Assembly (NCBI GenBank): GCA_964558905.1
Contig: CAZLGP010000178.1
Coordinates: 44,339 to 108,338 of the forward strand
Direction: 5' to 3'
DNA length: 64,000 nt
From: an uncultured Thermoanaerobaculia bacterium
GTDB taxonomy: Bacteria > Acidobacteriota > Thermoanaerobaculia > Gp7-AA8
Part shown: in pieces, positions 13,820 to 60,501 of the stretch
How the letters are laid out: every line of letters begins with the position of its first letter
Numbering within the stretch: position 1 is the stretch's first letter
Translations under genes and position numbers: made by a program
Notes under the pieces: generated by a model
What the model was told of the DNA's origin: nothing
Seen by the model: the letters and a program-made list of their open reading frames with translations, nothing else
Databases searched by the model: none

Positions 13820-13917
13820 CCAGTCAGTCTCAAAGTCTCAAAGTCTCAAAGTCTCAAAGAGTGTTCTTGCCGCCCTCTTTGAGACTTTGAGACTTTGAGA
13901 CTTTGAGACTTGACTGG
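13820..13917. repeat. Tandem-repeat-armed hairpin, family B (octamer GTCTCAAA / TTTGAGAC), copy B1
   Basis: ccagtca(gtctcaaa)x4gag, 13-nt loop tgttcttgccgcc, then ctc(tttgagac)x4ttgactgg. Sits between convergent stops at 13792 and 13930. Confidence 0.9.
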
Positions 13918-13929
13918 ACGCTCCCCCTA

Positions 13930-26984: not shown

Positions 26985-27130
26985 CAACTCTGAGCGCAGC
27001 GAAGAGTCAACGGAGCCCCCAACTCTGAGCGCAGCGAAGAGTCAACGGAGCCCTCTCGTGAAGCGATCCTCGTGCGCATGAGGCTCGCTTTACGAGAGGG
27101 CTCCCTTGATCCTTCGCTTCGCTCAGGATT
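26985..27130. repeat. Family E long hairpin element, copy E1 (left arm tandemly duplicated)
   Basis: caactctgagcgcagcgaagagtcaacggagccc occurs twice in tandem (26985-27018 and 27020-27053). Inner stem ggagccctctcgt / acgagagggctcc. Right arm gagggctcccttgatccttcgcttcgctcaggatt (27097-27130) is shared almost identically with E2 and E3. Lies between convergent stops at 26975 and 27142. Confidence 0.85.
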
Positions 27131-30290: not shown

Positions 30291-30378
30291 CGGTTGGCGG
30301 TTGCCGGTTGGCGGTTGGCGGCACATCGAAACGAGCCCCCGCCCTCCCGCCAACCGCCAACTGCCAACCGTCAACCGG
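30291..30378. repeat. Tandem-repeat-armed hairpin, family D (heptamer GGTTGGC / GCCAACC), copy D1
   Basis: cggttggcggttgccggttggcggttggcgg (30291-30321). Loop with cccccgccctc. Right arm ccgccaaccgccaactgccaaccgtcaaccgg (30347-30378). Lies in a divergent region, and the right arm ends 4 nt before the kinase ATG at 30383. Confidence 0.9.
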
Positions 30379-34653: not shown

Positions 34654-34654
34654 G

Positions 34655-34750
34655 AGTGCTGAGTGCTGAGTGCTGAGTGACGCTCCGCGTCAGGCAATCT
34701 TCGCGCCTGGGCGGGCGGGACTCAGCACTCAGCACTCAGCACTCAGCACT
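34655..34750. repeat. Tandem-repeat-armed hairpin, family A, copy A2
   Basis: agtgctgagtgctgagtgctgagt (34655-34678). 41-nt loop ending cctgggcgggcggg. Right arm actcagcactcagcactcagcactcagcact (34720-34750). Fills the gap between convergent stops at 34653 and 34754. Confidence 0.9.
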
Positions 34751-38084: not shown

Positions 38085-38209
38085 TGATTCCTCCGAGAAT
38101 TGGATGAAGAGACCGGCCGGGAGGCCGAACAGGCGCGCCGCTTCCGTGGCTGCGGGCTCCCAGGGCGCGCGGATTGTAGCAGGAGCAGCAGTCTTCCAGC
38201 CGGTTCAAA

Positions 38210-38238
38210 TTGCGGTGCATGGCGCCGCTCGTTATGAT
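38210..38238 (+). promoter_or_regulatory. Candidate sigma-70-type promoter for the second pyrophosphatase gene
   Basis: TTGCGG (38210-38215), 17-nt spacer, TATGAT (38233-38238), about 70 nt upstream of ATG 38308. AGGAG RBS at 38294-38298. Confidence 0.35.
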
Positions 38239-38307
38239 GCGCGGCACCGAGACAAGACCTGACCGGAACCTCGGTCATCGGCGATCACTCTTCAGGAGCT
38301 CTGACGA

Positions 38308-40377
<2,070 letters not shown>

Positions 40378-40385: not shown

Positions 40386-40475
40386 GAGTTAAGTAGGGTC
40401 AGACCCGGAAACTCTACTTAACTCTCCGCCGCCCACCCGTTAAGTAGAGTTTCCGGGTCTGACCCTACTTAACTC
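40386..40475. repeat. Family F element: perfect 37-bp inverted repeat with self-complementary arms
   Basis: gagttaagtagggtcagacccggaaactctacttaac (40386-40422) and its exact reverse complement (40439-40475). 16-nt spacer tctccgccgcccaccc. Each arm is itself a hairpin (gagttaagtag ... ctacttaactc). Lies between convergent stops at 40377 and 40474. Confidence 0.9.
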
Positions 40476-43571: not shown

Positions 43572-43608
43572 AGGCGTGGCGGGAAGCCCCGCCCAGCGCG
43601 CGCGAGAC

Positions 43609-43696
43609 GCGTGCGCGTCAGCCGCCGGGACGGCGGCGGTCGGGAGAGTCGGCCCGTTCCAGCGGACCGCCGACGTCGCGCCGGCTGACGCCCGGG
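43609..43696. repeat. Hairpin repeat, family H copy 2 (expanded interior)
   Basis: gcgtgcgcgtcagccgcc (43609-43626) is identical to 7003-7020. cgtcagccg pairs with cggctgacg (43682-43690), followed by cccggg as in copy 1. Confidence 0.7.
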
Positions 43697-43765
43697 CGTC
43701 CCGCCCGCGCCCTGGAGTTTTGGACATTTCGGGGTGCCGCGGGCAGATCGTCCCGAAGGGACTTC

Positions 43766-43936
43766 AGAGGGTAGCCGGTGGCAAGCGCAAAAGCGCCGCC
43801 ACCGGAAGAAGACGGCATGCAGGAAGTCCGCCCCGGAGGGGCGGAAGAGGTTCTCTGCCGCCCCTCCGGGGCGGATCATTCGCGGACGCGCCGTTTCCGG
43901 TGGCGGCGCATTCGCGCTCGCCACCGGCTACCCTCT
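43766..43936. repeat. 171-bp nested palindrome (40-nt outer arms, perfect 17-bp inner inverted repeat)
   Basis: Outer arms: agagggtagccggtggcaagcgcaaaagcgccgccaccgg (43766-43805) and ccggtggcggcgcattcgcgctcgccaccggctaccctct (43897-43936), with about 4 mismatches. Each arm also self-pairs (ccggtggc...gccaccgg). Inner repeat: ccgccccggaggggcgg (43828-43844) and ccgcccctccggggcgg (43858-43874). Confidence 0.85.
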
Positions 43937-44092
43937 TTACGCGCCTCCGGCGCAGCTGCCCGAGGATAAAGTTAACGCCATTGCGGCTGAAAAGCCGGGG
44001 CTATTTCCTCATGCCCGCTACGCGGGCGTTTGGGCAACAGACCCTGAAGCGGGCCCGCGTAGCGGGCCCGCCCGCGCCCTTGAAGTCAACGA

Positions 44093-45572: not shown

Positions 45573-46742
45573 ATGACGCGGCTTCGGCCCGCGTCGCGCG
45601 GGTGTACCATGCGGGCCGTGCCGCCCGAGTCCAACCTGAGGAACGTTCTCCGCAACCTTCTGCAATACGGGGACTTAACCTTTCGCGACTTCGTCGAGCT
45701 GGCGCTGTATCACCCTGACTTCGGGTACTACGCGCGACACGAAAATCCGATCGGGAAGGGGGCGGATTACGTCACCGCTCCCACGCTCAGCCCCGTTTTT
45801 TCGTTCGCTCTCGGCAGCCTCGTCCGCGAGTTCGTGCGCCGCAGCGAGGGCGCACTGTGCTCCATCGTGGACATCGGATGTGGCGATGGCGGACTGATCG
45901 AAGCGCTTGCCCGTTGCCCGTTGCCCGTTGCCAGTCCGGTGAGATTTCTCGGAGTCGATCGCGAGCTGGGTCGTGCTGCGCCTGGCGACGCGACGCCTGG
46001 ACGACTCGTCGACTACGTCCGCACGGTCGACGAGCTTCCTCGTGACGGCGCACATCTCTTTCTCTCCAACGAGTTGTATGACGCGTTCCCGTTCGCCCGC
46101 CTGGTCCGTCGCGGCGAGCATGTGCACGAGCTCTGGGTTCGAGAGCGCGATGGAGCTCTCGACTGGACGGAGCGTGAGGCGCCGGCCGCATACGACGACT
46201 ACTTTGCCGATCACCGGATCGAGTTGGCCGAGGGTCAGTTCGCGGACGTCTCGCTGGAGTGGGAGGCGTTTCATGCCGATGTCGTGCGATTTCTGCAGCG
46301 CGGACTGATCGTCACGATCGACTACGGCCATCCTGCAAAGACGCTTTTTCATCCGCGCGCCCGGCGCTTCGGAACCGCGGCCGCCTACGCGGGCCAGCGC
46401 GTGTCGCGCGATCTTCTGGCGAATCCCGGCGAGCAGGATCTCACGGCGCACATCAACTTCAGCGACCTCGAGCGCGCCGGCGAGCGCCACGGCGCGACGA
46501 CGCTCTTCTTCGATCGTCTCGCGAAGTTCCTTCTGTCCCTCGGCATCGCCGAGCACGAGCTCTTCCGTCCCTTGCACGAGATGACCATCGAGAATCCGGA
46601 ACAGGGGCTGGCGCTCAGGGAGGCGCGGGAGGAAGCGCGGCGGCTCGTGCTGCCTGATGGGATCGGCGAGGAGATGCGTGTGCTGGTCCAGGCGAAGAAC
46701 GTCGAGCTCGCCGGCTGGTCATTCCAGACGTGGCCCTCGTAG
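45573..46742 (+). CDS. SAM-dependent methyltransferase, MidA/NDUFAF7 (DUF185) family
   Basis: FVELALYHPDFGYYA...GKGADYVTAPTLSPVFSFALG, SAM motif IVDIGCGDGGL, FLSNELYDAFP, DLTAHINFSDL, all typical of the MidA family. Alternative start at 45609. Confidence 0.8.
   Translation: MTRLRPASRGCTMRAVPPESNLRNVLRNLLQYGDLTFRDFVELALYHPDFGYYARHENPIGKGADYVTAPTLSPVFSFALGSLVREFVRRSEGALCSIVDIGCGDGGLIEALARCPLPVASPVRFLGVDRELGRAAPGDATPGRLVDYVRTVDELPRDGAHLFLSNELYDAFPFARLVRRGEHVHELWVRERDGALDWTEREAPAAYDDYFADHRIELAEGQFADVSLEWEAFHADVVRFLQRGLIVTIDYGHPAKTLFHPRARRFGTAAAYAGQRVSRDLLANPGEQDLTAHINFSDLERAGERHGATTLFFDRLAKFLLSLGIAEHELFRPLHEMTIENPEQGLALREAREEARRLVLPDGIGEEMRVLVQAKNVELAGWSFQTWPS
45907..45932. repeat. Family C heptamer array (TTGCCCG x3) inside the MidA CDS, single arm
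   Basis: ttgcccgttgcccgttgcccgttgcc. Three 7-nt units make 21 nt, so the frame is kept. Encodes LARCPLPVA directly after the GCGDGG SAM-binding loop. Confidence 0.8.
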
Positions 46743-46748
46743 CCCTGC

Positions 46749-46876
46749 GCGAGCGCAGCGAGTCGAAGGGCCAGGTTGGCACCTACGCCGAGCGAAGCCC
46801 AGCGTAGCCGCACGTTCAGCGACGTTGGCGCGCGCTGCGTTGCTGTTAACGTGGCTCCTCGACTCGCTGCGCTCGC
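46749..46876. repeat. Long-range inverted repeat (family E-like sequence flavour)
   Basis: gcgagcgcagcgagtcgaagg (46749-46769) pairs with cctcgactcgctgcgctcgc (46857-46876), 18 of 20 bases. The interior contains gagcgaagccc, reminiscent of the E arms. Lies between the MidA stop (46742) and the M15 peptidase start (46944). Confidence 0.6.
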
Positions 46877-46943
46877 TCGGAGTCAAACCAAGAACGCTGA
46901 AACGCTTTCGACCCTGGCTGCACTACTCGAACGGAGACCCAAG

Positions 46944-47813
46944 ATGCGATCCGCTTCGAGATGGCTGCCGACTCTCACCTTCGCGGCTCTCCTGTGCGCG
47001 TCCTGTCGCTGTGCGCCGCTGTCGCAGGCCGGCAACACGGCGACGGACGCGCCGCCTTCGGGAGATGACCTCACCGAAACCGCGTCGGAGGGCATCCGGA
47101 TCGTGGTGAAGACCCCGAGCGCCGACGACCGCACGCCCATTGCCTCGCGCTCGTTCGTCTCGACCGATCGCGTCGCGCTGATGTGCGAGGATGCGGAGGC
47201 CGTGTGGAAGCTCGACGAGGACGGATCCGACGGGACGCTCGATCCGGCGTCTCACAGCGGGCCCCTGTTCGAGATCGCCTTGCGGCCGAAGCAAGTCAAC
47301 GGAGCCCGACCTCGCCCGCTGAAGTACTCCGTGCTCGCGTCGGTAGGAGATCGCGCCACGACGCTCGTGCTCGAGCAGGATCCGATCGACACGATCCGCC
47401 AGCAGTACATCGACATGGCCAAGCGGCTCACGCCCTCGCGGTCGGAGTTCCTCAGGGGCGGGCGCAGCCCGCGCGGCTACTTCCGCTTCGCGGAGATCCA
47501 GAGCCGCGACGGCGCGCCATGGGCGGTGTTCACCGCGCTCGACCAGCTCGACCAATGGCGCGAGAACTACGGCGGACCGCTGAAGGTGAACCGCGGCTTC
47601 TCGACGCCGCGACACAACGCGAAGATCAAAGGTGCGGCGAAGAACAGCCAGCACCTCTACGGCCGGGCCGCCGACATCGATTCGGACGCGAGCGACTGGC
47701 ACGCCAAGCGCGACGCCGCGCGCGACGCCGGCGCGTGTCTGGAGCCGCTGGCAATCTCCGGATATGGTCACGTGCACGGCGATTGGAGGGAGCAATGTCC
47801 GCCAGGATGGTGA
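46944..47813 (+). CDS. Peptidase M15 (D-Ala-D-Ala carboxypeptidase / YcbK-like) family metallohydrolase, lipoprotein-like
   Basis: GGAG upstream of ATG 46944. MRSASRWLPTLTFAALLCASC. Zn motif SQHLYGRAADID (H-x6-D) and C-terminal GYGHVHGDW. Confidence 0.7.
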   Translation: MRSASRWLPTLTFAALLCASCRCAPLSQAGNTATDAPPSGDDLTETASEGIRIVVKTPSADDRTPIASRSFVSTDRVALMCEDAEAVWKLDEDGSDGTLDPASHSGPLFEIALRPKQVNGARPRPLKYSVLASVGDRATTLVLEQDPIDTIRQQYIDMAKRLTPSRSEFLRGGRSPRGYFRFAEIQSRDGAPWAVFTALDQLDQWRENYGGPLKVNRGFSTPRHNAKIKGAAKNSQHLYGRAADIDSDASDWHAKRDAARDAGACLEPLAISGYGHVHGDWREQCPPGW

Positions 47814-48568
47814 GGTGTGCGTTCCTGCTGATCGTCGGGTTCGCAGCGTCAGCCCAACCGGTGATCACGCGCCATCAGGGACTCACCCACGTGCGTCCCG
47901 TCCAGGTGATCGACATCCCGAACGAGAAGCCGTTCCCTCCGCCCGCCGATCCGGCCGCGGATGCGCGTTGGCAGCAGGGGTGGGAGTCGCGGGCCACTCG
48001 GTTCGAATCGATCCGCGACAAGCCGACAGACGCGGGCAAGCTTTGGGCGATGCAGACGCTCTATCTCGAAGCGGCATTCATGCAGCGCCACTTCACGCGC
48101 ACGGGAGAGCCGCTCGGCGAGGACTACGGCGCGTACTACATCGACCTCGGCTTATTCGTGACTGGACTCAAAGATCCGCGCTCGATCGAAGCCCTCGCGG
48201 TGGCCACGGACATCGCCCCCTCGGTCTCCTCCACGCTCGCTGAGTTCGGGGATCCCGCCGTCGAGGCCGTCGTGCGAACGCTGAACAACCCCTTCCTCCG
48301 CGAGAGTGGCGCATTCACCCTCGGCAAGTTTCTCCAGGGGTCGAACGAGCGGCGGATTCGGGTCGCGCCGGCCAAGATGCAAACGATCCGAGGCGCGCTG
48401 ACGAAGGCCGTCGTCAACGGAACGCCGCAGTTGCAGAAGAACGCGGTGCGTGCGCTGAGGCACGTGAGGCTGACCGAGGACGAGAAAAAGATCCTCCGGA
48501 GCGTGGAGAGGAATACCAGGACGACGCCTGCCGTGAGAGGCGAGATCCAGCGCTCCATTCGACCGTGA
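47795..48568 (+). CDS. Hypothetical secreted protein, HEAT/ARM-like helical repeats
   Basis: GGAGGGAG upstream of ATG 47795. Overlaps the upstream gene by 19 nt. Signal peptide MSARMVRCAFLLIVGFAASA. Helical, with no catalytic motif recognised. Confidence 0.5.
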   Translation: MSARMVRCAFLLIVGFAASAQPVITRHQGLTHVRPVQVIDIPNEKPFPPPADPAADARWQQGWESRATRFESIRDKPTDAGKLWAMQTLYLEAAFMQRHFTRTGEPLGEDYGAYYIDLGLFVTGLKDPRSIEALAVATDIAPSVSSTLAEFGDPAVEAVVRTLNNPFLRESGAFTLGKFLQGSNERRIRVAPAKMQTIRGALTKAVVNGTPQLQKNAVRALRHVRLTEDEKKILRSVERNTRTTPAVRGEIQRSIRP

Positions 48569-48601
48569 TCCAGCACGTGGGGCGGCCGTGACGTTCCTTC
48601 C

Positions 48602-48629
48602 TTGACTCTTCGGGTTCGCCGGCTAGAAT
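48602..48629 (+). promoter_or_regulatory. Candidate sigma-70-type promoter of the nuo operon
   Basis: TTGACT (48602-48607), 16-nt spacer, TAGAAT (48624-48629), 41 nt upstream of the nuoA ATG. Confidence 0.5.
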
Positions 48630-48669: not shown

Positions 48670-49029
48670 ATGGCCAACTACTCAGTGTTGCTGGTAGCCG
48701 TGCTCATCGTCCTCTCCGTCCCGATTTTGGCCCTGTTCATCATCGCCCCGCTGGTGCGGGCCTCGCGAGTGAACAAGGTGAAACTCGAGCCGTATGAATG
48801 CGGCATCGCTCCCACCTCCCTGGCCTTCGATCACCGCTTCTCGGTACGCTACTTCCTCATCGCGGTCCTGTTCATCATCTTCGATGTCGAAACGGTGTTC
48901 CTCTTCCCCTGGGCGATCCGCTTCAAACAGCTCGGCTGGTTCGGGGCCATCGAGATGGCGATCTTTCTCGCGATCCTGCTGATCGGTTACTTCTACGCCT
49001 GGAAGAGGAAGGTCCTTTCATGGGTCTGA
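48670..49029 (+). CDS. nuoA: NADH-quinone oxidoreductase subunit A
   Basis: Three TM segments. KLEPYECGI and [21 protein letters not shown] are the NuoA/ND3 signature. Confidence 0.95.
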
Positions 49030-50045
49030 TCGAGGACCGCTTCGAGTCGAACGTTCTCACCACGAACGTCGACAAGTTCTTCAACTGGGCCCGCAAATCT
49101 TCCCTCTGGCCGATGCAGTTCGGCCTGGCCTGCTGCGCCATCGAGATGATGGCCGTCCTCGATCCCCGTCACGACATGGCCCGCTTCGGCGCCGAGGTCT
49201 TCCGCGCCACGCCGCGCCAGGCGGACCTGATGATCGTCTCCGGCACGGTCACCGAGAAGATGGCGCCGATCGTCCGCCGGCTGTGGGACCAGATGCCGGA
49301 GCCGAAGTGGGTCATCGCGATGGGCTCGTGCGCCACGTGCGGCGGTCCGTACGACACGTACGCCGTCACGCAGGGCGTCGATCGTCTCATCCCCGTCGAC
49401 GTCTACATCCCCGGATGTCCTCCACGTCCCGAGGCGCTGATCTGGGGACTGATCGAGCTGCAGAAGAAGATCGAGAAGATGCACATCCTGCGGAAGGGCG
49501 GCGAGGCGTATGACTTCGCCCGGGCCGCGGTGCGCGATTCACTCCGCCCGGCGCATGAGGGTCCGGCGCTCCGCGCCGAGCAGGCGGCGGCGACGCAGCT
49601 CAAGCAGGCGCCGATCTCGGGGGTGAAGCGCGCGCCCGCGCCGCCCTCGGCGCCCAAGCCGGCACCCGCTCCCGCCGCCGCGGTCGCGGAAGCATCCACG
49701 GTGTCGGAGGCGGAGATCCAGCAGGCCGCGGCTCCGGAGATCCCGCTCGAGCAGGAGGCCGAGACGGGGGCCTCTCCCGCCGTGCCATTCCATCGCGACG
49801 ACCTCACGCTTCCCGAGCGCATGGAGATGGCCAAGGAGATCGGCGACAAGTGGGAGACGCGGCTCTTCGCCGCCATGGCGCAGACGGACTGCGGCGCGTG
49901 CGGATGGGACTGCGAAGGCTACGCGAACGCGCTCGCCACCGCCGAGACCGACGATATCTCATTGTGCGTCCCCGGGGAGTCGGAGACGCTGGACATGCTG
50001 AAAGCACTGATGGAGGAGAAAGGGAAGAGCTACTCGGGAGGATAG
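49020..50045 (+). CDS. nuoB: NADH-quinone oxidoreductase subunit B with a ~180-aa C-terminal extension ending in a 4-Cys domain
   Basis: ATG 49020 overlaps nuoA by 10 nt. Core motifs [23 protein letters not shown] (cluster N2 ligands) fall within aa 1-160. A Pro/Ala-rich linker follows, then [35 protein letters not shown] (Cys291, Cys294, Cys298, Cys316). Confidence 0.9.
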
Positions 50046-50139
50046 TTGGATCGTTGCCCGTTGCCAGTTGCCCGTTACCAGTGCTGTTTTCGCCCGCGCG
50101 AGAAACGCACTGGTAACTGGTAGCTGGGAACCAGCAACT
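50044..50139. repeat. Family C hairpin, copy C4, in the nuoB-nuoC junction
   Basis: agttggatcgttgcccgttgccagttgcccgttaccagtgc (50044-50084) pairs imperfectly with gcactggtaactggtagctgggaaccagcaact (50107-50139). The loop has its own small stem (gttttcgc / gcgagaaac). Confidence 0.75.
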
Positions 50140-50141
50140 CA

Positions 50142-50966
50142 ATGTCAGAGCAAACTCCCCCAAGCCCAGCGCCGCCACCGGCCGCACCCGCCGGCCGCAG
50201 CGTCGACGAACTGAAGCGCGACCCGCTCGTCGCGGCTGCCGTCAGTCGTGTCGACGATGCGGTCCTCGGCGCGAAGGAGCTCGCCGGCGAGATCACGCTC
50301 TTCTTCGACAGAGACCGCATCGTCGAAGTGGCCCGCGCCTTCAAGGACGCCGGCTTCGTTTATCTGGTCGATCTCTGCGGCGTCGACTATTCGAAGTATC
50401 CGGGCCACACCGGTCTGCGGTTCAGCGTCTCGTACACCCTGTACTCCTTCCAGCAGAACGCACGCGTCCGCCTGCGTGTCTGGACCGATGAGAAGTGGCC
50501 CGTTCCCTCGGTGACGTCGATCTGGCGCACGGCGAACTGGCACGAGCGCGAGACGTACGACATGCTCGGCATCGAGTTCTCCGGCCATCCGAACCTCGAG
50601 CGCATCCTGATGTGGGAAGGCTTCAACGGCCATCCCCTCCGCAAGGACTTCCCCGTCCGCGGCATCGACACCGGCGCGCGCATCTACCCCGAGGTCTTCC
50701 CCGAGGGTGGTGGACCGAAGGCAGGATCGACCGGCAAGGACGTGAAAGACGTCAATCTCTACAAGGGCGAATGGAAGCGATACGGCCAGTGGCCCGTCGC
50801 CCAGATCGGCGGCGGAGGAAACGGCGGCGCAAAAGCGCCTGCACCCGCCCCGAAGCCCGCGCCGAAGCCGGTTGCAGAGGCTCCCGCGGCGCCGAAGCCG
50901 GTGGCCGCCGCCCCCGCCGAGGCTGCGCCGCCCACCGAGCCAGATGTGGAGGAGGAGACCGAATGA
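50142..50966 (+). CDS. nuoC: NADH-quinone oxidoreductase subunit C with Pro/Ala-rich C-terminal tail
   Basis: WRTANWHERETYDMLGIEFSGHPNLERILM...HPLRKDFP is the NuoC/30-kDa signature. Tail: GGAKAPAPAPKPAPKPVAEAPAAPKPVAAAPAEAAPPTE. Confidence 0.95.
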   Translation: MSEQTPPSPAPPPAAPAGRSVDELKRDPLVAAAVSRVDDAVLGAKELAGEITLFFDRDRIVEVARAFKDAGFVYLVDLCGVDYSKYPGHTGLRFSVSYTLYSFQQNARVRLRVWTDEKWPVPSVTSIWRTANWHERETYDMLGIEFSGHPNLERILMWEGFNGHPLRKDFPVRGIDTGARIYPEVFPEGGGPKAGSTGKDVKDVNLYKGEWKRYGQWPVAQIGGGGNGGAKAPAPAPKPAPKPVAEAPAAPKPVAAAPAEAAPPTEPDVEEETE

Positions 50967-50976
50967 AGCCTCTTCT

Positions 50977-51009
50977 CCCGCCAACCGCCAACCGCCAACC
51001 GCCAACCGG
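50977..51009. repeat. Family D heptamer array (GCCAACC x4), single arm, in the nuoC-nuoD junction
   Basis: cccgccaaccgccaaccgccaaccgccaaccgg. No complementary arm seen nearby. Followed by GGGAGG (51012-51017) and the nuoD GTG at 51024. Confidence 0.85.
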
Positions 51010-51023
51010 CCGGGAGGTGGCTC

Positions 51024-52139
51024 GTGTTTGACGTCCATGAAATGGAGGTCAACTTCGGTCCGCAGCATCCGTCGACGCACGGTGTGCTGCGCGTCATCCT
51101 GAAGATCGACGGAGAGCGCATCATCGACGCAAAGCCGATCATCGGCTATCTCCATCGCGGCACGGAGAAGCTCTTCGAGCACATGGCCTATCCGCAGTGC
51201 ATCCCCCACACGGACCGGATGGACTACGTCGCCTCGGCCACGAACAACCTCGGCTTCGTCGAGGCGGTCGAGAAGCTGATGGGGATCACCGCGAACATCC
51301 CGAAGCGAGCGCAGCTCATGCGCGTGATGTTGTCTGAGCTGCAGCGCCTCTCGTCGCACCTGTTGTGGCTCGCGACGCACGCCATCGACCTCGGGGCCAT
51401 GACGCCGTTCTTCTACACGTTCCGCGAGCGCGAGCAGATCCTCGATTTCTTCGAGTCCTATTGCGGCGCGCGTCTCACGCTGAACTGCATGCGCATCGGC
51501 GGCATGCCGGACGATCTGCCGCACGGCTGGCTCGAGGACGTCGAGGCCTTCGTCGACAAGTTCGACGCCTGCATGGACGAGTACGAGGCCCTGTTGACGA
51601 ACAACCGCATCTGGAAGAAGCGGACCATCGGCATCGGCGTGATCTCTCCCGAGGAGGCCATCGACTGGGGCATCACCGGACCGCCCCTGCGCGGGTCGGG
51701 CGTCGAGTGGGATCTCCGTCGCGCTCAGCCGTACGAGTGCTATCCGGAACTGCAGTTCGAGATCCCGATCGGCAAGAACGGCGATACCTACGATCGATAT
51801 CTCGTCCGCATGGAAGAGATGCGGCAGTCCAACCGCATCCTCAAGCAGTGCTTCCCGCTCGTCCGCGCGACGCCGGAAGGCGACATCAAGGCGAAGATCT
51901 CCAAGGTCATTCGTCCGCCGGAAGGCGAGGTCTATCACTCGATCGAGTCGCCCAAGGGTGAGCTCGGCTACTACATCGTCAGCGACGGCAAGACCCAGAA
52001 CGCGTATCGCTGTCACGTGCGGCCGCCCTCTTTCGTCAATCTGCAGGCGCTGCCGGCGATGGCGAAGGGGCACCTCGTGTCGGATCTCGTCGCCCTGATC
52101 GGGACGATCGACATCGTCCTGGGGGAGGTGGACCGGTGA
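51024..52139 (+). CDS. nuoD: NADH-quinone oxidoreductase subunit D
   Basis: GTG start with GGGAGG 6 nt upstream. NFGPQHPSTHGVLRV, GYLHRGTEK and C-terminal DIVLGEVDR. Confidence 0.95.
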   Translation: MFDVHEMEVNFGPQHPSTHGVLRVILKIDGERIIDAKPIIGYLHRGTEKLFEHMAYPQCIPHTDRMDYVASATNNLGFVEAVEKLMGITANIPKRAQLMRVMLSELQRLSSHLLWLATHAIDLGAMTPFFYTFREREQILDFFESYCGARLTLNCMRIGGMPDDLPHGWLEDVEAFVDKFDACMDEYEALLTNNRIWKKRTIGIGVISPEEAIDWGITGPPLRGSGVEWDLRRAQPYECYPELQFEIPIGKNGDTYDRYLVRMEEMRQSNRILKQCFPLVRATPEGDIKAKISKVIRPPEGEVYHSIESPKGELGYYIVSDGKTQNAYRCHVRPPSFVNLQALPAMAKGHLVSDLVALIGTIDIVLGEVDR

Positions 52140-52144
52140 GGCGA

Positions 52145-52247
52145 AGTGCTGAGTGCTGTGTGCTGAGTGCTGAGTCCCGCCCACCGGGGCGCGAATCGAC
52201 CACGGCTCGGAGAGCCACTCAGCACTCAGCACTCAGCACCCAGCACT
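52145..52247. repeat. Tandem-repeat-armed hairpin, family A, copy A3, in the nuoD-nuoH junction (opposite orientation to A1/A2)
   Basis: agtgctgagtgctgtgtgctgagtgctgagt (52145-52175). The loop starts cccgcccacc. Right arm actcagcactcagcactcagcacccagcact (52217-52247). Confidence 0.9.
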
Positions 52248-52275
52248 GCACGGCCGAGGCGATGGAGGCGAGTTC

Positions 52276-53412
52276 TTGAACGAAGCGTTGATGACATACC
52301 TGATCTGGCCGGTCGCGAAGTACATCGCGGCGTTCGTGGTCGTCCTCACCATCGTGGCGGTGATGACCTGGATCGAGCGCCGCGGGTTGGGCCTGATGCA
52401 GGCCCGGCTCGGTCCGAACCGCGTCGGCCCGCAGGGTCTCCTTCAGATCATCGCCGATCCGGTGAAGCTGCTCCTCAAGGAAGACATCCTCCCCGCGCGG
52501 GCCGAGAAGGTCGCGTACTTCCTCGGACCGATGCTGCCGATCGTTCCGGCCCTGATCGTGTGGTGTCTGATTCCGTTCGGCCCGCCGCCGGATTTCGCGG
52601 TGACGCGGGTGAACGTGGCCCTGCTGCTCATCCTGGCCCTCACCTCCACGTCGGTCTACGGCATCATCCTCGGCGGCTGGGCATCGAACAACAAGTACTC
52701 GCTGATGGGCGGGCTGCGCTCGGCCGCGCAGGCGATCTCCTACGAGGTGCCGTTCGGGCTGTCGGTCATCGGCGTGCTGATGATCACCGGCAGCCTCGAT
52801 CTCGTGCAGATCGTGCGGTATCAGGAGGCCAACGGCTGGAACCTCCTCACGCAGATCGTGGCCGCGTTCATCTTCTTCGTGTCGATGAACGCGGAGAGCA
52901 ACCGCACGCCGTTCGATCTTCCTGAAGCGGAGTCGGAGCTCGTCGCCGGCTACCACACCGAGTATTCGGGGATGAAGTTTGCGTTCTTCATGCTCTCCGA
53001 ATACGCGGCCATGCTCGTCAACTCCGCCCTTCTGGTGACGCTGTTCTTCGGAGGGTGGTCGCTGGGGATGTTCGGCTTTGGGCTGACCACAGAAGTCATG
53101 GCCGGTATGGGCATCATGGGTGGCCTGCTCGGGGTGCTGATCTTCCTCGGCAAAGTGATGTTCTTCATGGTCGTCTTCGTCTGGTTCCGGGCGACCTTCC
53201 CCCGGTTCCGCTTCGATCAGCTCATGGACCTCGGCTGGAAGTTCATGATCCCCCTCGCGCTGGCGAACATCTTCGTCACCGGGATCTTCATTCTCGCTGG
53301 CCAGGAGCGGCTGATGACATGGGTCGGCCTCGGCACGATCGCCCTCATCGCGTTCTACCTCTTCCGGCCGAAACGCGTACCGGCGAAGCAGAAGGTGGCT
53401 CATGCAAGTTGA
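52276..53412 (+). CDS. nuoH: NADH-quinone oxidoreductase subunit H
   Basis: TTG start with GGAGG 7 nt upstream. ERRGLGLMQARLGPNRVGPQGLLQ, ESNRTPFDLPEAESELVAGYHTEYSGMKF. Confidence 0.95.
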   Translation: MNEALMTYLIWPVAKYIAAFVVVLTIVAVMTWIERRGLGLMQARLGPNRVGPQGLLQIIADPVKLLLKEDILPARAEKVAYFLGPMLPIVPALIVWCLIPFGPPPDFAVTRVNVALLLILALTSTSVYGIILGGWASNNKYSLMGGLRSAAQAISYEVPFGLSVIGVLMITGSLDLVQIVRYQEANGWNLLTQIVAAFIFFVSMNAESNRTPFDLPEAESELVAGYHTEYSGMKFAFFMLSEYAAMLVNSALLVTLFFGGWSLGMFGFGLTTEVMAGMGIMGGLLGVLIFLGKVMFFMVVFVWFRATFPRFRFDQLMDLGWKFMIPLALANIFVTGIFILAGQERLMTWVGLGTIALIAFYLFRPKRVPAKQKVAHAS

Positions 53413-53965
53413 GTATCCGAAGCCGAGGTGGTCGGAGAAGTTCCTGCTCCTGGACCTTCTCGAGGGTCTGAAGACGACGCTACGCGAGCTCTTCAAGCCG
53501 AAAGTGACCATCCGCTATCCGGAAGAGCGGATGGAGCCGGTGGACCGGTTCCGGGGCATGTTCAAGTTCTCCTATGACCGTTGCATCGCCTGCAAGCTCT
53601 GCGCGGTGGCCTGTCCGATCGACATCATCTACATCGACGTCCACGACGACATGATCGAAGAGGGCGGAAAGAAGAAGAAGGTCAAGGTCCTCGACCGCTA
53701 CGACATCGACGTGAAGCGCTGCATGTTCTGCTCGCTCTGCGAAGAAGCGTGTCCCACGAAACCGAAATCGATCTGGCTCACCACCAAGACCTACGAGTTG
53801 GCGAGCTACGACCGCAACGATCTCTATTTCAACATGCAGCAGCTCGAGTATTGGGACGACCGTCCTAAGTACACCGGGCTGCCGGACGACGAAAAGCCGG
53901 CCATCGACGATGCCCGGCTGCTCTCGGATGGGAGCAAGGATGAAGGAGGAAGGATGAAGGGATGA
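53402..53965 (+). CDS. nuoI: NADH-quinone oxidoreductase subunit I (2x[4Fe-4S])
   Basis: CIACKLCAVACP and CMFCSLCEEACP. Overlaps nuoH by 11 nt. The last ~10 codons (SKDEGGRMKG) lie in the family G repeat arm. Confidence 0.95.
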   Translation: MQVEYPKPRWSEKFLLLDLLEGLKTTLRELFKPKVTIRYPEERMEPVDRFRGMFKFSYDRCIACKLCAVACPIDIIYIDVHDDMIEEGGKKKKVKVLDRYDIDVKRCMFCSLCEEACPTKPKSIWLTTKTYELASYDRNDLYFNMQQLEYWDDRPKYTGLPDDEKPAIDDARLLSDGSKDEGGRMKG

Positions 53966-54022
53966 ATGATGCAGGCCGGCCGCGGAGCGATCCGTCCTTC
54001 CGCCTTCATCTTTCGACCTTCA
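53936..54022. repeat. Family G hairpin (AAGGATG-type units), copy G2, spanning the nuoI 3' end and the nuoI-nuoJ junction
   Basis: aaggatgaaggaggaaggatgaagggatgaatgatg (53936-53971) versus tccgtccttccgccttcatctttcgaccttca (53991-54022). Confidence 0.7.
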
Positions 54023-54036
54023 GTTTTCCCTGAGCA

Positions 54037-54717
54037 ATGGACAGCGTCACTTCACAGATGCCCCTCCTCGTGTTCCTGGTGATCGGGACGATCGCCGTCG
54101 CGTCGTCGATTCTCGTCGTGGCGATGCGCAATCCCGTTCACTCCGCGCTCTTCCTGCTGCTGACGTTCCTCTGCGTGGCGGTGCTCTTCGTCATCAAGTC
54201 CGCGGAGTTCGTCGCGGCCGTGCAGGTGCTCGTCTATGCGGGCGGCATCATGGTCCTGTTTCTGTTCGTGGTGATGCTGATCAACTACCGGCATCTGCCC
54301 GAGGAGCGGGTGATGTCGAAGGTGTGGCTCGGCGGAATCGGCGTCGGCCTGGCGGTCTTCGTCCTCTTCTTCTTCCTCGTGCGCAACGGTACCTACGCCG
54401 AACAGGTGCCGGACGCGGCGAAGAAGCTCGGCACGGTGACCGAGACGTATCTCACGGAGCACCCGAGCGACCCGAGCAAGATGGTCCGGCGCACCCGCGA
54501 GCGCGAGAACCGGAACTCCGAGGCTCTGGGGATGGCCCTGTATCGCGACTATCTCGTGCCGTTCGAGGTCGTATCGCTGTTCCTGCTCGTGGCCATGATC
54601 GGCGCGATCGTCATCGGCAAGCGGGAGTTGTCCGCCGAGGAGGAGGAGGCCACGCCGCACTTCATCCTCGAGAGGGCGGAAGTGGAGAAGGAAGTGAAGG
54701 AGGCCATGAATGCCTAG
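54037..54717 (+). CDS. nuoJ: NADH-quinone oxidoreductase subunit J
   Basis: NPVHSALFLLLTFLCVAVLFV...AEFVAAVQVLVYAGGIMVLFLFVVML is the NuoJ/ND6 signature. Confidence 0.9.
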   Translation: MDSVTSQMPLLVFLVIGTIAVASSILVVAMRNPVHSALFLLLTFLCVAVLFVIKSAEFVAAVQVLVYAGGIMVLFLFVVMLINYRHLPEERVMSKVWLGGIGVGLAVFVLFFFLVRNGTYAEQVPDAAKKLGTVTETYLTEHPSDPSKMVRRTRERENRNSEALGMALYRDYLVPFEVVSLFLLVAMIGAIVIGKRELSAEEEEATPHFILERAEVEKEVKEAMNA

Positions 54718-54723
54718 CCGCGG

Positions 54724-54829
54724 GTCAACTCTGAGCCGCGCAGCGGGGAAGAGTCAGGTGAGCCCACTGGAGGCCCGTGGTTTTGCACCTCGTGAGGGCT
54801 CCCTTGATCCTTCGCTTCGCTCAGGATTG
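54724..54829. repeat. Family E long hairpin element, copy E2, in the nuoJ-nuoK junction
   Basis: Left arm gtcaactctgagccgcgcagcggggaagagtcaggtgagccc. Right arm gagggctcccttgatccttcgcttcgctcaggattg. Followed by GGGGAGG and the nuoK ATG at 54843. Confidence 0.85.
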
Positions 54830-54842
54830 CGGGGAGGCTCCC

Positions 54843-55145
54843 ATGCCTAGCACCGCCCAATACCTGATGCTCTCCGGCACTCTGTTCGCGGTCGGTCTGG
54901 TCGGTGTGATCGTCCGCCGGAACATGATCACGGTGCTGATGTGCATCGAGCTGATGCTCAATGCCGTGAACATCAATCTCGTGGCCTTCGCCCATCGCCT
55001 GGCGGACCTGCAGGGGCAGGTCTTCACCGTGTTCGTGATCACGATCGCGGCCGGCGAGGCGGCGGTCGGCCTGGCCATCATCATCCAGTTGTACCGGATG
55101 CGGTCGACGATCAACGTGGACGAGGTCAAGACGCTCCATGGATAG
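54843..55145 (+). CDS. nuoK: NADH-quinone oxidoreductase subunit K
   Basis: From ATG 54843: [40 protein letters not shown]...[13 protein letters not shown] is the NuoK/ND4L signature. Confidence 0.95.
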
Positions 55146-55153
55146 CCGCCGAA

Positions 55154-55256
55154 ATACTCTGAAGAGCGAAGCGAAGAAGAGTCAGCGGAGCCCCCGCGTG
55201 GCCTGTGGCTCGGGTGTCGAGAGGGCCCCCTTGATCCTTCGCTTCGCTCAGGATTG
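55154..55256. repeat. Family E long hairpin element, copy E3, in the nuoK-nuoL junction
   Basis: Left arm atactctgaagagcgaagcgaagaagagtcagcggagccccc. Right arm gagggcccccttgatccttcgcttcgctcaggattg, ending 3 nt before the nuoL ATG at 55260. Confidence 0.85.
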
Positions 55257-55259
55257 ACC

Positions 55260-57416
<2,157 letters not shown>

Positions 57417-57433
57417 AGGGGAGAGACGAGTCG

Positions 57434-59032
57434 ATGGATCCGATACTGAACATCATTACCTACATTCCGCTGGTCGGCGCGCTGGTGATCCTGTTCTTCG
57501 TGAACAAGAACAGCACGCGCGCGATCCGGATGATGGCCACGGGAACGGCGGTCGTGGATTTCATCGTCTCGCTCTATCTGTGGTTCAACTTCGATCCGAA
57601 CAAGCTGTGGCAGTTCGAGTTCAAGGTGTCGTGGATCCCATCCCTTGGCGTGGACTATCACTTCGGTGTGGACGGAATCGCCATCCTGCTGATCCTCATG
57701 ACGACCTTCATGGGGATCATCGCCATCGTCTCCTCCTACAGCGCCATCCATCACCGCGAGAAAGAGTATTACGTGCTCCTACTCATGCTGCAGACCGGCA
57801 TGATCGGCACGTTCTGCGCGCTGGACTTCTTCCTCTTCTACGTGTTCTGGGAAATCATGCTCGTGCCGATGTACTTCATCATCGGCATCTGGGGCGGCGC
57901 TCGGAAGCTCTACGCCGCGATCAAGTTCTTCCTGTATACGCTCGCCGGATCGGTGCTCATGCTGCTCTCGATCCTGGCGTTGTTCTTCTTCAATGACGGC
58001 GGCATCCCCTTCCTCAACATCGCCGGACTCGGGAACCCCGGCACCTTCAGCGTGCTCCAGTTCCACGAGGTCGGCCACCTGATCCCGGCGGCATTGCAGT
58101 TCTGGATCTTCCTCGGCTTCTTCTTCGGCTTCGCCATCAAGGTGCCGATGTTCCCGTTCCATACGTGGCTGCCCGACGCCCACGTCGAGGCGCCCACGGC
58201 CGGCTCGATCATCCTCGCCGCCGTTCTCCTCAAGATGGGGACCTACGGGTTCGTGCGGTTCGCGCTGCCGATCCTTCCGGACGCGACGAAGCAGCTTCTC
58301 GTGCCGGTGGCCGTGTTGTCAGTCATCGGGATCATCTACGGCGCGCTCGTGTCGCTCGTCCAGAAGGACATGAAGAAGCTCGTCGCGTACTCCTCGGTGT
58401 CGCACCTCGGATTCGTCATGCTCGGCCTGTTCGCGCTCAATCCCGCCGGCATCCAGGGATCGGTCATTCAGATGATCAATCACGGCATCTCCACCGGCGC
58501 GCTCTTCCTTCTCGTCGGCATGATCTACGAGCGCCGGCATACGAGGATGATCGCGGACTATGGCGGCCTCGCCAAACAGATGCCCATGTATGCGACGCTG
58601 TTCCTCATTGCGGCCCTATCCTCGATGGGCTTGCCGGGGCTGAATGGGTTCATCGGCGAGTTCACGATCCTGCTCGGCACCGCGAGCTCCAGCGCCTACG
58701 GCACGATCGCCTACGCCGTGTTCGCCGCGGTCGGCATCGTCCTCGGCGCCGCGTATCTCCTCTGGCTCTATCAGCGCGTTTTTTGGGGGCCGATCGACAA
58801 TCCGGCGAATGCCGTCCTGAAGGACGTCAATCGGCGCGAGCTCGGAATGATGCTCGCTCTAATCGTCCTGATGGTGTGGATCGGCGTCTACCCGAAGCCG
58901 CTCTTCGATTTCATTGCAAAGCCGGTCGACTACGTCGTGCAGAAGGTCGATCCCGGATACTTCGAGAGGCAGCCGGTCACGTACCCGGCGTCGCCGGCTC
59001 CCGTTGAGCACCACGAGGTCGCCGCGAAATGA
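57434..59032 (+). CDS. nuoM: NADH-quinone oxidoreductase subunit M
   Basis: From ATG 57434: FYVFWEIMLVPMYFIIGIWGG, KVPMFPFHTWLPDAHVEAPTAGSIILAAVLLKMGTYG. Confidence 0.95.
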   Translation: MDPILNIITYIPLVGALVILFFVNKNSTRAIRMMATGTAVVDFIVSLYLWFNFDPNKLWQFEFKVSWIPSLGVDYHFGVDGIAILLILMTTFMGIIAIVSSYSAIHHREKEYYVLLLMLQTGMIGTFCALDFFLFYVFWEIMLVPMYFIIGIWGGARKLYAAIKFFLYTLAGSVLMLLSILALFFFNDGGIPFLNIAGLGNPGTFSVLQFHEVGHLIPAALQFWIFLGFFFGFAIKVPMFPFHTWLPDAHVEAPTAGSIILAAVLLKMGTYGFVRFALPILPDATKQLLVPVAVLSVIGIIYGALVSLVQKDMKKLVAYSSVSHLGFVMLGLFALNPAGIQGSVIQMINHGISTGALFLLVGMIYERRHTRMIADYGGLAKQMPMYATLFLIAALSSMGLPGLNGFIGEFTILLGTASSSAYGTIAYAVFAAVGIVLGAAYLLWLYQRVFWGPIDNPANAVLKDVNRRELGMMLALIVLMVWIGVYPKPLFDFIAKPVDYVVQKVDPGYFERQPVTYPASPAPVEHHEVAAK

Positions 59033-60501
59033 CCTGGAGCGACGTCGTCTACCTCCTGCCGGAGATCGTGATTGCGATCGGTGCATGCGTGCTGCTCATC
59101 GCGCCGGTGACGGGATTCCGGCGATTCGCGTCGGCGAAGTGGACGATGCTCGCGCTGCTGGGGATCACGGCCGTGGCGGTCGTCGTCTGTTCCCGGGTGG
59201 TGGTGGATCTCCCCCAGACCGCGGGCTTTGCCTCGATGTTCGTGCTCGACGGCTTTGCGATCTTCTTCAAGCTCCTCTTCATCGTCACCATCGCCATGGT
59301 CACGCTGCTGTCGGATGACTTTTTCCGCGGTACGCGGTACTCGCCGTGGGAGTACTACTCGCTGCTGGCGTTTGCCCTCTGCGGCATGTTGTTCATGGTC
59401 AGCGGCATTCATCTGGCGTCGATCTACGTCGGCCTCGAGCTGATGTCACTGTCGAGCTACATCCTGGCCGGATACTTCAAGAACGAGCAGAAGAGCACCG
59501 AGGCGGCGATGAAATACTTCATCCTCGGGGCGGTGAGCTCGGCGATTCTGCTCTACGGCATCTCCCTCATCTACGGCGTCACCGGGTCGCTGAGTCTCGT
59601 GGACATCGCCAACTCGATGTCGACGCTGATGACGAACGACGCGCTGATGTTCGGGATCATGCTTCTCGGCGCCGGACTGTGCTTCAAGATCGCGGCCGTC
59701 CCGTTTCACGTCTGGACGCCCGATGTCTATGAAGGTGCGCCGACGCCGGTGACCGCTTTCCTATCGACCGCGTCCAAGGCCGCGGCGTTCGCGATCTTCG
59801 CGCGCATCTTCTATGTCGGGCTGCATCACTTCCACCTCGACTGGCAGTACGTCCTGGCGGCGATCGCTGCCCTGTCGATGATCCTCGGCAACCTCGCGGC
59901 GATCACCCAGGACAGCGTCAAGCGCATGCTCGCGTACTCGTCGATCGCCCACGCCGGATACGTCCTGCTGGGCATCCTCGCCGTCAGCGAGATGGGCCTG
60001 TACGGCATCCTCGTCTACTCCGTCGTCTACGTGTTCGCGACGCTCGGCATCTGGGCCACGGTGCTGATGCTCGAGCGGCACGAGTATGCGGGCGAGGCGG
60101 TGAACGACTTCGACGGTCTGCACAAGCGGGCACCGTTTTACGCGTTTGCGATGGTCGTCTTTCTCCTCTCGCTGGGCGGCATCCCCCCGACGGCGGGCTT
60201 CATCGGCAAGTACTTCCTCTTCTATGCCGCGGTCGGCGCGGGTTTCGGCTGGCTGGCGATCATCGCGGTTCTGATGTCCGCCGTCTCGGTGTTCTTCTAC
60301 TTCCGCCTGGTGATGGCGATGTACCTCAAAGAGGGACGCGAGGCGGTGGTGACAGGCGGTGGAGCGCTGAAGTTCGTGGTCGCGGTGGCGCTCGTCGTCA
60401 CGCTGTTCTTCGGCGTCCTGCCGTCGCTCCTGATCGACCAGGCGAAAGACTCCGGCGGTTGGGTGGCCTCGCGCGTGGCCGCGGTCGTCCCCGGGCAATA
60501 G
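59029..60501 (+). CDS. nuoN: NADH-quinone oxidoreductase subunit N
   Basis: ATGA overlap with nuoM. GLELMSLSSYILAG, KIAAVPFHVWTPDVYEGAPTPVTAFLS. Confidence 0.95.
   Translation: MTWSDVVYLLPEIVIAIGACVLLIAPVTGFRRFASAKWTMLALLGITAVAVVVCSRVVVDLPQTAGFASMFVLDGFAIFFKLLFIVTIAMVTLLSDDFFRGTRYSPWEYYSLLAFALCGMLFMVSGIHLASIYVGLELMSLSSYILAGYFKNEQKSTEAAMKYFILGAVSSAILLYGISLIYGVTGSLSLVDIANSMSTLMTNDALMFGIMLLGAGLCFKIAAVPFHVWTPDVYEGAPTPVTAFLSTASKAAAFAIFARIFYVGLHHFHLDWQYVLAAIAALSMILGNLAAITQDSVKRMLAYSSIAHAGYVLLGILAVSEMGLYGILVYSVVYVFATLGIWATVLMLERHEYAGEAVNDFDGLHKRAPFYAFAMVVFLLSLGGIPPTAGFIGKYFLFYAAVGAGFGWLAIIAVLMSAVSVFFYFRLVMAMYLKEGREAVVTGGGALKFVVAVALVVTLFFGVLPSLLIDQAKDSGGWVASRVAAVVPGQ

Follow-up and report, generated by a model that had tools for sequence, protein, structure and literature searches.

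Repetitive extragenic palindromes (REP) and bacterial interspersed mosaic elements (BIME) evolve partly by gene conversion, and mycobacterial interspersed repetitive units (MIRU) reportedly occupy the intercistronic regions of operons, at the stop/start boundary, as direct tandem repeats of 40-100 bp carrying small open reading frames (ORFs) that overlap the neighbouring stop and start. The REP/BIME of enterobacteria and pseudomonads are abundant, are often found between co-transcribed genes near stop codons and can stabilise the upstream mRNA (PMC12306157). A REP is an imperfect palindrome of 20-40 nucleotides (nt) with a GTAG/CGTC tag (PMC3733652), and REPs are tied to RAYT transposases (PMC2817692). 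The MITEs (miniature inverted-repeat transposable elements) Correia/NEMIS, ERIC and RUP span ~100-200 bp, with terminal inverted repeats, long stem-loops and target-site duplication; they are polymorphic among strains, are co-transcribed with their neighbours and are occasionally fused to the end of an ORF (PMC2229807, PMC2649163). In Xanthomonas, 70-75 arrays of GGGAATC heptads are in convergent inverted pairs capable of forming stem-loops; the arrays prefer gaps between co-directional ORFs and lie near stops or starts, and the heptameric GGGNATC repeats of Xanthomonas and Nostoc are intergenic and variable in copy number (PMC4692102). TAACTGA arrays of Beggiatoaceae, cyanobacteria and Bacteroidetes lie just upstream of starts, including those in ribosomal protein operons (PMC4679880). 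Here we describe repeat elements at six junctions of a nuo (complex I) operon in a 64,000-nt stretch of contig CAZLGP010000178.1 (the window, by which we mean the whole stretch analysed). We conclude that these elements are probably tolerated mobile or self-homogenising palindromes and not a conserved regulatory design.

Repeat elements at six junctions of the nuo operon

The operon comprises 11 genes in the order nuoA-B-C-D-H-I-J-K-L-M-N (48670-60501, + strand) and lacks nuoEFG. Pfam supported nuoA, B, C, D, H, I, J, K, L and M; nuoN (59029-60501), which lay outside the Pfam scan, was assigned by its position and by tblastn against relatives. A sigma-70-like promoter match from the promoter pattern scan (48602-48629) lies directly upstream of nuoA, and a tRNA/tmRNA scan found nothing. 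The best NuoD matches placed the window in the class Thermoanaerobaculia (Acidobacteriota). The nearest genomes are metagenome-assembled genomes (MAGs) with NuoD identities of 93-96% and ~85-89% DNA identity to the window, and the best match in a metagenome scan with NuoH for a conspecific genome was 80% identical.

Eighty loci with NuoD relatives, referred to below by L numbers, were compared using gene boundaries called automatically by tblastn. Within this set, 30 genomes with orthologous operons were treated as the near clade, and a junction was scored as occupied when its gap was at least 40 nt. The relatives are MAGs of different species, the nuoD tree is a single-gene tree and all folds are predictions. 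Start codons were refined by homology before gaps were measured. The gaps in the window and the occupancy of each junction across the orthologous operons were as follows.

nuoA-B: gap -10 nt; occupied in 0 of 24
nuoB-C: gap 96 nt; occupied in 10 of 25
nuoC-D: gap 57 nt; occupied in 12 of 29
nuoD-H: gap 136 nt; occupied in 24 of 29
nuoH-I: gap -11 nt; occupied in 0 of 26
nuoI-J: gap 71 nt; occupied in 6 of 25
nuoJ-K: gap 125 nt; occupied in 7 of 23
nuoK-L: gap 114 nt; occupied in 9 of 23
nuoL-M: gap 17 nt; occupied in 6 of 21
nuoM-N: gap -4 nt; occupied in 0 of 20

Pfam and the refined starts bore out the gene identities and spacing given in the original prediction, including its statement that A-B, H-I, L-M and M-N overlap or are at most 17 nt apart. 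Inverted-repeat, tandem-repeat and family searches also recovered a repeat element at each of the six junctions where it had placed one. Fold stability of each element is expressed below as a z-score against 200 dinucleotide shuffles.

nuoB-C, 50053-50138 (+): 41-nt arms at 50053-50093 and 50098-50138, GTTGCCC-type heptads; z = -8.0
nuoC-D, 50978-51008 (+): (CCGCCAA)x4.4, single arm, no hairpin; z = -0.7
nuoD-H, 52145-52247 (+): 31-nt arms at 52145-52175 and 52217-52247, (GTGCTGA)n and its complement, 94% complementary; z = -5.1
nuoI-J, 53936-54022 (+): AAGGATG-type arms at 53936-53960 and 53995-54022; z = -2.0
nuoJ-K, 54730-54830 (+): family E (CTCTGAGC...GCTCAGGATTG), 5' arm decayed; z = -0.4
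nuoK-L, 55158-55257 (+): family E, arms at 55164-55176 and 55237-55249 and beyond; z = -2.6

The earlier description of all six as stable hairpins held only in part. Three are strong and one is moderate, whereas the J-K element is a decayed copy and the C-D element is a non-hairpin array. That C-D is a single arm had been predicted correctly: Tandem Repeats Finder (TRF) and the fold score agree that the partner arm is absent, and the array is the 3' half of a CGGTTGG/CCGCCAA hairpin type found complete at 30291-30377. A nearly identical half-element lies at the C-D junction of L016.

The B-C stem begins 7 nt past the nuoB stop, finishes 3 nt short of the nuoC ATG and carries an inner mini-hairpin (GTTTTCGCCCGCGCGAGAAAC) as its loop, and the D-H stem begins 5 nt past the nuoD stop. 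At I-J the 5' arm lies within nuoI, where it codes for the final nine residues of NuoI (KDEGGRMKG) and for the stop codon, placed at 53963-53965. The C-terminus of NuoI (53931-53965) is 11 residues longer than in L001, the closest relative. Family E is a ~105-nt palindrome without tandem units that starts with CTCTGAGCG and ends with CGCTCAGGATTG. Its K-L and J-K copies are 87% and 76% identical, respectively, to the copy at 27076-27130, and the J-K copy is recognisable by sequence family alone. At K-L, the nuoK stop (TAG) is in frame with the nuoL ATG (55143-55262) and no further stop occurs across the family-E element; read-through at nuoK would give a NuoK-NuoL fusion.

Occupancy, probable insertion footprints and copies elsewhere

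Occupancy of the junctions varies even among close relatives. In L001 and L032 (NuoD 95-96% identical to that of the window) the gaps are 0 nt at B-C, -8 nt at C-D, 2 nt at I-J and -8 nt at K-L, and in L032 J-K is also -8 nt. The original prediction had named empty junctions in related genomes as a mark of neutrality, and such junctions were found at five of the six positions in L001 and/or L032. At the sixth, D-H, these two genomes carry other families, AGTCTCAA and the 9-mer ATAGGACAA. Across the near clade, 66 of 79 long spacers fold at -25 kcal/mol or better and one junction hosts many different families in different relatives; the units include AATTGAA, GAATGTT, GAATGCA, GAAGGCA, GAAACCA, GATGAAC, GGGTGTC, AGCTCTT and GGCCAGC, besides family-E-like elements. 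Elements are present in the long-read complete chromosomes L003 (OY970380.1) and L011 (OY970284.1) and are therefore not assembly artefacts. In L026, the J-K junction (13719-13948) has a tandem duplication in which the initial 24 nt of nuoK and another copy of the 3' half of the hairpin are included, and at L-M a family-E-like element is nested within the loop of a heptad hairpin.

The ancestral stop/start overlap leaves a trace at occupied junctions, where the 8-nt block that formed it is found on either side of the element. The copies in the window are listed here.

54710-54718 (+): left J-K copy, ATGCCTAGC, of a 9-nt direct duplication; holds the nuoJ stop
54843-54851 (+): right J-K copy, ATGCCTAGC; holds the nuoK start
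55138-55145 (+): left K-L copy, ATGGATAG, of the duplicated nuoK-stop/nuoL-start block
55260-55267: right K-L copy, ATGCAGAC, diverged

When an element is inserted with a duplicated block, the upstream stop is kept in the left copy and the downstream start in the right. The ancestral state of J-K, one overlapping GTGCCTGA/ATGCCTAG block, is present in 11 relatives, and two copies of GTGCCTGA are found in L001. Relatives show one ATGGATAA overlap at K-L, and ATGGnTAn appears twice where the block is duplicated. At D-H, xTGA lies on either side of the element in nearly all genomes. The duplication is clearly 8-9 nt at J-K, and the similarity extends to ~20 nt at some other junctions.

Neither A-B nor H-I is occupied in any operon scored; their ancestral overlaps are 10 and 11/26 nt, compared with at most 8 nt at occupied junctions. 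These lengths suggest that an overlap of 10 nt or more could not be spanned by an 8-9 bp duplication and that one of 8 nt or less would be permissive. The M-N junction is an exception to this rule, having an overlap of 4 nt and no occupant in any genome scored.

Two further observations were made at these boundaries. Some short gaps (4-17 nt) contain two copies of the block (L022 and L023 D-H, ATGAtctccATGA; L013 J-K, GTGCCTGAagcgATGCC; J-K of L004, L008 and L021) and look like excision scars. At D-H and I-J of L016 and at I-J of L024, the repeat unit GATGAAC/GAACGAT is the local stop/start sequence itself (cGATGAAC), and nuoI of L024 ends within its (GAACGAT)n array, which suggests microhomology-guided insertion or local seeding of the repeat.

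The families at the nuo junctions are also found outside the operon.

9105-9190 (no strand assigned): GTTGCCC hairpin, a paralogue of the nuoB-C element with the same loop
9864-9978 (no strand assigned): GTGCTGA hairpin, upstream of a divergent gene pair
26985-27130 (no strand assigned): family E whose 35-nt left arm is duplicated; lies between convergent genes and has 76-87% identity to the nuo copies
30291-30377 (no strand assigned): complete CGGTTGG/CCGCCAA hairpin, of the family to which the C-D half-element belongs
34654-34750 (no strand assigned): GTGCTGA hairpin, between convergent genes

The GTTGCCC loop recurs in the B-C elements of L007 and L021, and single GTTGCCC arms occur at 17702 and 45907. 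An octamer hairpin, AGTCTCAA, has three copies in the 64 kb, all outside the nuo elements. The window holds AAGGATG (family G) once only, at I-J. About 16 further elements lie in convergent, divergent and co-directional gaps of the window, usually 0-30 nt from genes, with arms of up to 36-37 nt at 100% complementarity. Among paired heptad hairpins of the window and near relatives, 54 of 58 are outside ORFs or at their edges. Family E is present in near and distant Thermoanaerobaculia loci; paired heptad hairpins occur in some of the more distant Thermoanaerobaculia and are absent from many. A search of the whole window against Rfam gave no match at the gathering threshold, and matches at E<=1 over 49.9-55.4 kb were spurious, miRNA-precursor-like hits to generic hairpins.

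The operon is not especially rich in elements. Six of its 10 junctions are occupied compared with 16 of 42 gaps elsewhere in the window, which is not a significant enrichment (Fisher p=0.29), so the density within nuo is nothing special. What is notable is the tolerance of insertions inside the operon.

Other repeats of the window were noted along with these. The GTTGCCC hairpin at 9105-9190 falls within the long ORF that codes for a BlaR1-like protein, upstream of the part matched by Pfam, and the GTTGCCC arm at 45907-45932 lies inside the ORF of a Methyltransf_28 protein; either the starts of these ORFs are mis-called or these are rare intragenic copies. A hairpin with a perfect 37-bp stem (40386-40475) between convergent H+-translocating pyrophosphatase and GAF-domain genes shares the motif GGGTCAGACCC with the flank (13802-13825) of the AGTCTCAA element at 13826 and may belong to another repeat family. 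A 551-nt gap holds two large G+C-rich palindromes, at 43596-43710 and 43737-43965; the second is 229 nt long with a fold of -180 kcal/mol, and the first has 85% identity over 47 nt with 6990-7036.

The position of the stems relative to translation signals offers a reason why insertions might be survivable. For 66 strong junction hairpins of the near clade, median spacings are 2 nt (stop to stem) and 12.5 nt (stem to start), and most insertions have a Shine-Dalgarno (SD) sequence in the short tail 3' of the stem. In the window, nuoD (GTG, 51024) is preceded by GGGAGG at 51012-51017; nuoH (TTG, 52276), whose start aligns with the ATG/GTG of relatives, has GGAGG at 52264-52268, 7 nt ahead; and nuoK has GGGGAGG at 54831-54837 after the element. 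At K-L, the terminal CTCAGGATTG of family E itself supplies AGGA (55250-55253), 6 nt before the nuoL ATG. The signal for nuoJ is a weak GAG 2 nt ahead of its ATG, and L001, with an empty I-J junction, is likewise without a clear SD. No SD follows the B-C stem, and the candidate for nuoC lies on the other side of the hairpin.

50036-50042 (+): GGGAGGA SD, just ahead of the nuoB stop and parted by the hairpin from the nuoC ATG at 50142

In relatives GGGAGGA lies next to the nuoC start (the empty B-C junction of L001 and L032 reads ggagtgTAAATG), where it would serve that start. In the window, the predicted fold would bring it within ~13 nt of the nuoC ATG, and only if the B-C hairpin forms. An insert that folds away in the mRNA would leave stop, SD and start close together in space, and coupled or SD-driven initiation at the downstream cistron would survive. 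Insertions would thus be tolerated because folding keeps downstream translation working. Split ribosome-binding sites bridged by a hairpin are known from genes of phage T4, and the folded nuo inserts proposed here would resemble them.

Concerted change, pairing and competing explanations

The heptad units of settled elements turn over together. At D-H, L011 (11114-11237) and L013 (3021-3131) share the left flank TGAtcaaag, the right flank TGAtttcaa... and a loop that is ~85% identical, yet the units on both arms are CAGAAGG in L011 and CAGAAAC in L013, with one intermediate CAGAAAG in L011. At L-M, the unit is GAGATCA in L003 (16278-16379) and GTGGTCA in L013 (8262-8360) behind an identical left flank. 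In these two orthologous comparisons each heptad has two changed positions, on one arm as on the other. A third case at D-H sets GAATGTT (L003 and L018) against GAATGCA (L025), all behind TGAgaagcgaa. Judged from these alignments, heptads change as a set within and across arms, and the cause is probably slippage combined with arm-to-arm or ectopic conversion.

Taken together, the flanking duplications, the presence/absence polymorphism, the window-wide families and the missing strand signature described below support insertion. On the reading that we favour, two kinds of element, hairpins with tandem 7-8 nt units and the ~105-nt family E, would populate the intergenic DNA of this genome and its relatives. 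They would enter nuo only where this can be survived, at short stop/start overlaps or abutments, would be lost again from some of these sites and, once settled, would evolve in concert by the processes just named. The punctuation of the operon would then be mainly the footprint of an active repeat system, with effects on mRNA stability, RNase III processing or termination of the upstream cistron as by-products.

Conservation of pairing has to be set against this. In an alignment of the B-C element from six genomes with the 9105 paralogue, 15 of 35 pairs show compensatory changes and 91% of cells are paired, compared with 82% in shuffles; none of 500 shuffles reached the observed value, and slid controls collapsed. 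Kept pairing is equally expected of a DNA palindrome that holds its own symmetry, and a strand test tells these cases apart: where the mRNA is under selection, sense-strand G·U pairs should be tolerated and A·C should not. For the 66 near-clade junction hairpins, G·U counts were 174 on the sense and 174 on the antisense strand, the sense fold was the more stable in 33 of 66, and in a wider set the excess of G·U was on the antisense strand. Nothing in these counts points to maintenance of the transcript strand in particular.

Several observations weigh against tolerated insertion as the full account. The D-H junction is occupied far more often (24 of 29) than the other permissive junctions (50 of 146, p=2e-6) or than M-N (0 of 20, p=2e-9), and its purine-rich arm comes first in 20 of 22 cases, which neutral insertion alone does not predict. 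The 15 compensatory changes by which the B-C family has kept its pairing could reflect selection for structure. Similarity between left and right flanks reaches 15-20 nt, including the SD, at K-L of L025 and at D-H of L006 and L014 and does not fit a fixed duplication of 8-9 bp; the duplication may be longer there, or the SD may have been re-created at the required distance. No target duplications were readable outside the operon junctions, as the elements there have ill-defined ends and no empty sites are available for comparison. The 40 window ORFs scanned with Pfam are all chromosomal genes of ordinary kinds and include neither a transposase nor a RAYT, and an autonomous element with matching ends was not encountered.

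The D-H junction deserves separate comment. Many of its units are GAAnnnn variants, the junction is mostly empty in the more distant clade, and its losses are scattered on the nuoD tree. The most economical account, judged from the alignments and counting the GTGCTGA copy of the window as a replacement, would be one old insertion in the near-clade ancestor that has persisted with turnover of its arms, a few replacements and four or five losses. Selection at the nuoA-D/nuoH-N boundary may account for such persistence, as may a low rate of loss. This junction alone hints at something maintained.

The hairpins could also be read as selected RNA punctuation, serving as barriers to 3' exonucleases, as RNase III sites or as a means of tuning termination and re-initiation and so adjusting subunit output. 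Long, near-perfect stems 0-12 nt past stop codons would suit such a role, as would the kept pairing and the high occupancy of D-H; precedents are the E. coli REPs that, at most 15 nt from a stop, stall ribosomes and lower translation (as relayed in PMC12306157, citing Liang et al. 2015) and the Correia elements that RNase III binds or cuts (PMC2649163, PMC2229807). We nevertheless consider this reading improbable, given that occupancy and family vary among close relatives, with five of six junctions empty in L001 and/or L032, that neither G·U content nor stability favours the sense strand, that the same families lie between convergent and divergent genes, and that in the window itself the J-K fold is lost and C-D has half an element. 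Transcription termination, in which the hairpins would be intrinsic terminators or attenuators dividing the operon into transcription units, is scarcely credible. The stems are stable and that at I-J is followed by CAGTTTTCCC, but none of the six elements matched in the terminator scan, none contains or is followed by a sigma-70-like promoter pattern, and termination in mid-operon for a 1:1 complex without downstream promoters would be deleterious. A role at the level of DNA, in which the elements would form cruciforms or hairpins recognised by nucleoid proteins, gyrase or replication/repair factors, as has been proposed for REP/BIME, would make the location within nuo incidental. Equally well-paired strands, near-perfect arms and a presence in every kind of intergenic gap are in keeping with it; the dozens of unrelated units share no common protein-binding motif and occupancy is variable, and we hold such a role to be quite unlikely.

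A different origin of the same structures is also conceivable, in which they arose in place and were not transposed: local heptamer slippage would be followed by palindromic duplication or template switching, with ectopic gene conversion homogenising the families. The D-H unit of L016, which equals the ancestral cGATGAAC overlap, the (GAACGAT)n end of nuoI in L024, the retention of flanks and loop while all heptads change (L011 and L013) and the sharing of families between neighbouring junctions (D-H/J-K in L005, D-H/I-J in L016, I-J/K-L in L020) all speak for it. It does not readily explain identical 7-8 nt units and loops at loci unrelated to one another (three copies of AGTCTCAA in 64 kb; the GTTGCCC loop at 9105 and B-C), the clean 8-9 nt flanking duplications that resemble insertion, or the like behaviour of family E, which has no tandem units, and we regard it as unlikely. 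A bolder proposal is that the elements form an undescribed class of self-renewing, heptad-armed palindromes in Thermoanaerobaculia, with dozens of units and one architecture. These would insert at stop/start overlaps by codon duplication and replace the heptads of both arms in concert through active arm-to-arm or ectopic conversion or a dedicated mobilisation machinery, and at least the nuoD-H hairpin would be kept by selection throughout the clade as the nuoA-D/nuoH-N boundary of the transcript. This combination seems to us doubtful.

The original prediction had inferred from six stable hairpins in one transcript that something extra is at work. A designed control of complex I expression was not sustained, in view of relatives without most of the elements, of families that are widespread and of pairing that does not favour the mRNA strand. 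Of the three candidate explanations it offered, tolerance of an active repeat-insertion process is supported by the polymorphic occupancy, the absence of enrichment and the lack of a strand signature; segmental mRNA stabilisation, processing and coupling effects are possible side-effects.

Some features of the operon and its surroundings are recorded here apart from the repeats. NuoB (49020-50045) has ~340 amino acids, with a C-terminal extension of ~150 residues consisting of an Ala/Pro-rich linker and a Cys-rich end. The latter matches PF04060, 'Putative Fe-S cluster', below threshold (22.4 bits where 23 is required; E=1e-4), and L001, L032 and L004 share a conserved 3' end of the extension. 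The extension could be an electron-input adaptor for a complex lacking NuoEFG. Two divergent H+-translocating pyrophosphatase genes adjoin each other at 35574-40377. Within 46730-48591, ~1.6 kb has no counterpart in L001 and for the most part none in L032; this DNA carries two small ORFs and an ORF with a Peptidase_M15 domain, lies directly upstream of the nuo promoter region and begins at a family-E-like palindrome (46749-46876).

Comparison with described repeat systems

The soil Acidobacteriota that belong to this class are uncultured and abundant, and the nuo loci compared here provide a natural experiment in how large a load of structured insert is borne by a tightly coupled operon for a 1:1 membrane complex. 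The loci suggest which junctions are permissive, namely those with overlaps of at most 8 nt and never those of 10 nt or more, and the concerted change of heptads on two arms is a clean case for the study of how palindromes maintain their symmetry. In practical terms, the elements will mislead gene callers, through extended ORFs and false small proteins, and will break short-read assemblies in this clade. Selection on the D-H hairpin, if it is real, would suggest that 11-subunit operons control complex I expression by segments. Literature searches returned no description of repeats in Thermoanaerobaculia, nor of the family-E sequence.

The nuo elements share properties with several described systems and differ from each. 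They are unlike REPs in being 85-105 nt long with arms of 30-40 nt made mostly of tandem heptads, and their ends (GTTGCCC, AGTGCTG, AAGGATG and CTCTGAGC) show no GTAG/CGTC tag. In contrast to MIRU they are inverted, and three-frame translation of the six junctions gave no consistent bridging ORF. The G+C-rich stem and U-run of an intrinsic terminator were recognised in none of the six by the terminator scan.

The likeness to MITEs is closer. The elements are short (<300 bp) and non-coding, with inverted repeats (arms of 19-41 nt at B-C, D-H, I-J and K-L), and they show insertion polymorphism and dispersed copies. Target-site duplication is seen at J-K in the window and in L001 and as a degenerate 8-nt block at K-L, although some cases look longer. 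Classic MITEs, however, are A+T-rich and have TA termini and a conserved core, whereas the nuo elements have dozens of arm sequences and variable heptad copy number; no parent insertion sequence is known for them and the Pfam-scanned ORFs of the window include no transposase.

Paired heptameric arrays of the Xanthomonas type are matched by period-7 TRF arrays on both arms at B-C, D-H and I-J, 0-28 nt from genes. The units themselves (GTTGCCC, GTGCTGA, CCGCCAA, AAGGATG and AGTCTCAA) lack the G-tract periodicity of a G-quadruplex-type GGGNATC repeat. The Xanthomonas and TAACTGA genomes each have one dominant unit, for which G-quadruplex formation or binding of a regulator has been proposed, while many unrelated units coexist in the loci compared here, with nearly all arrays paired into hairpins and units changing in concert on both arms. 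In architecture, the nearest described counterparts of the nuo elements are the GGGAATC heptads of Xanthomonas, and in behaviour they are closest to REP/BIME and MITEs.

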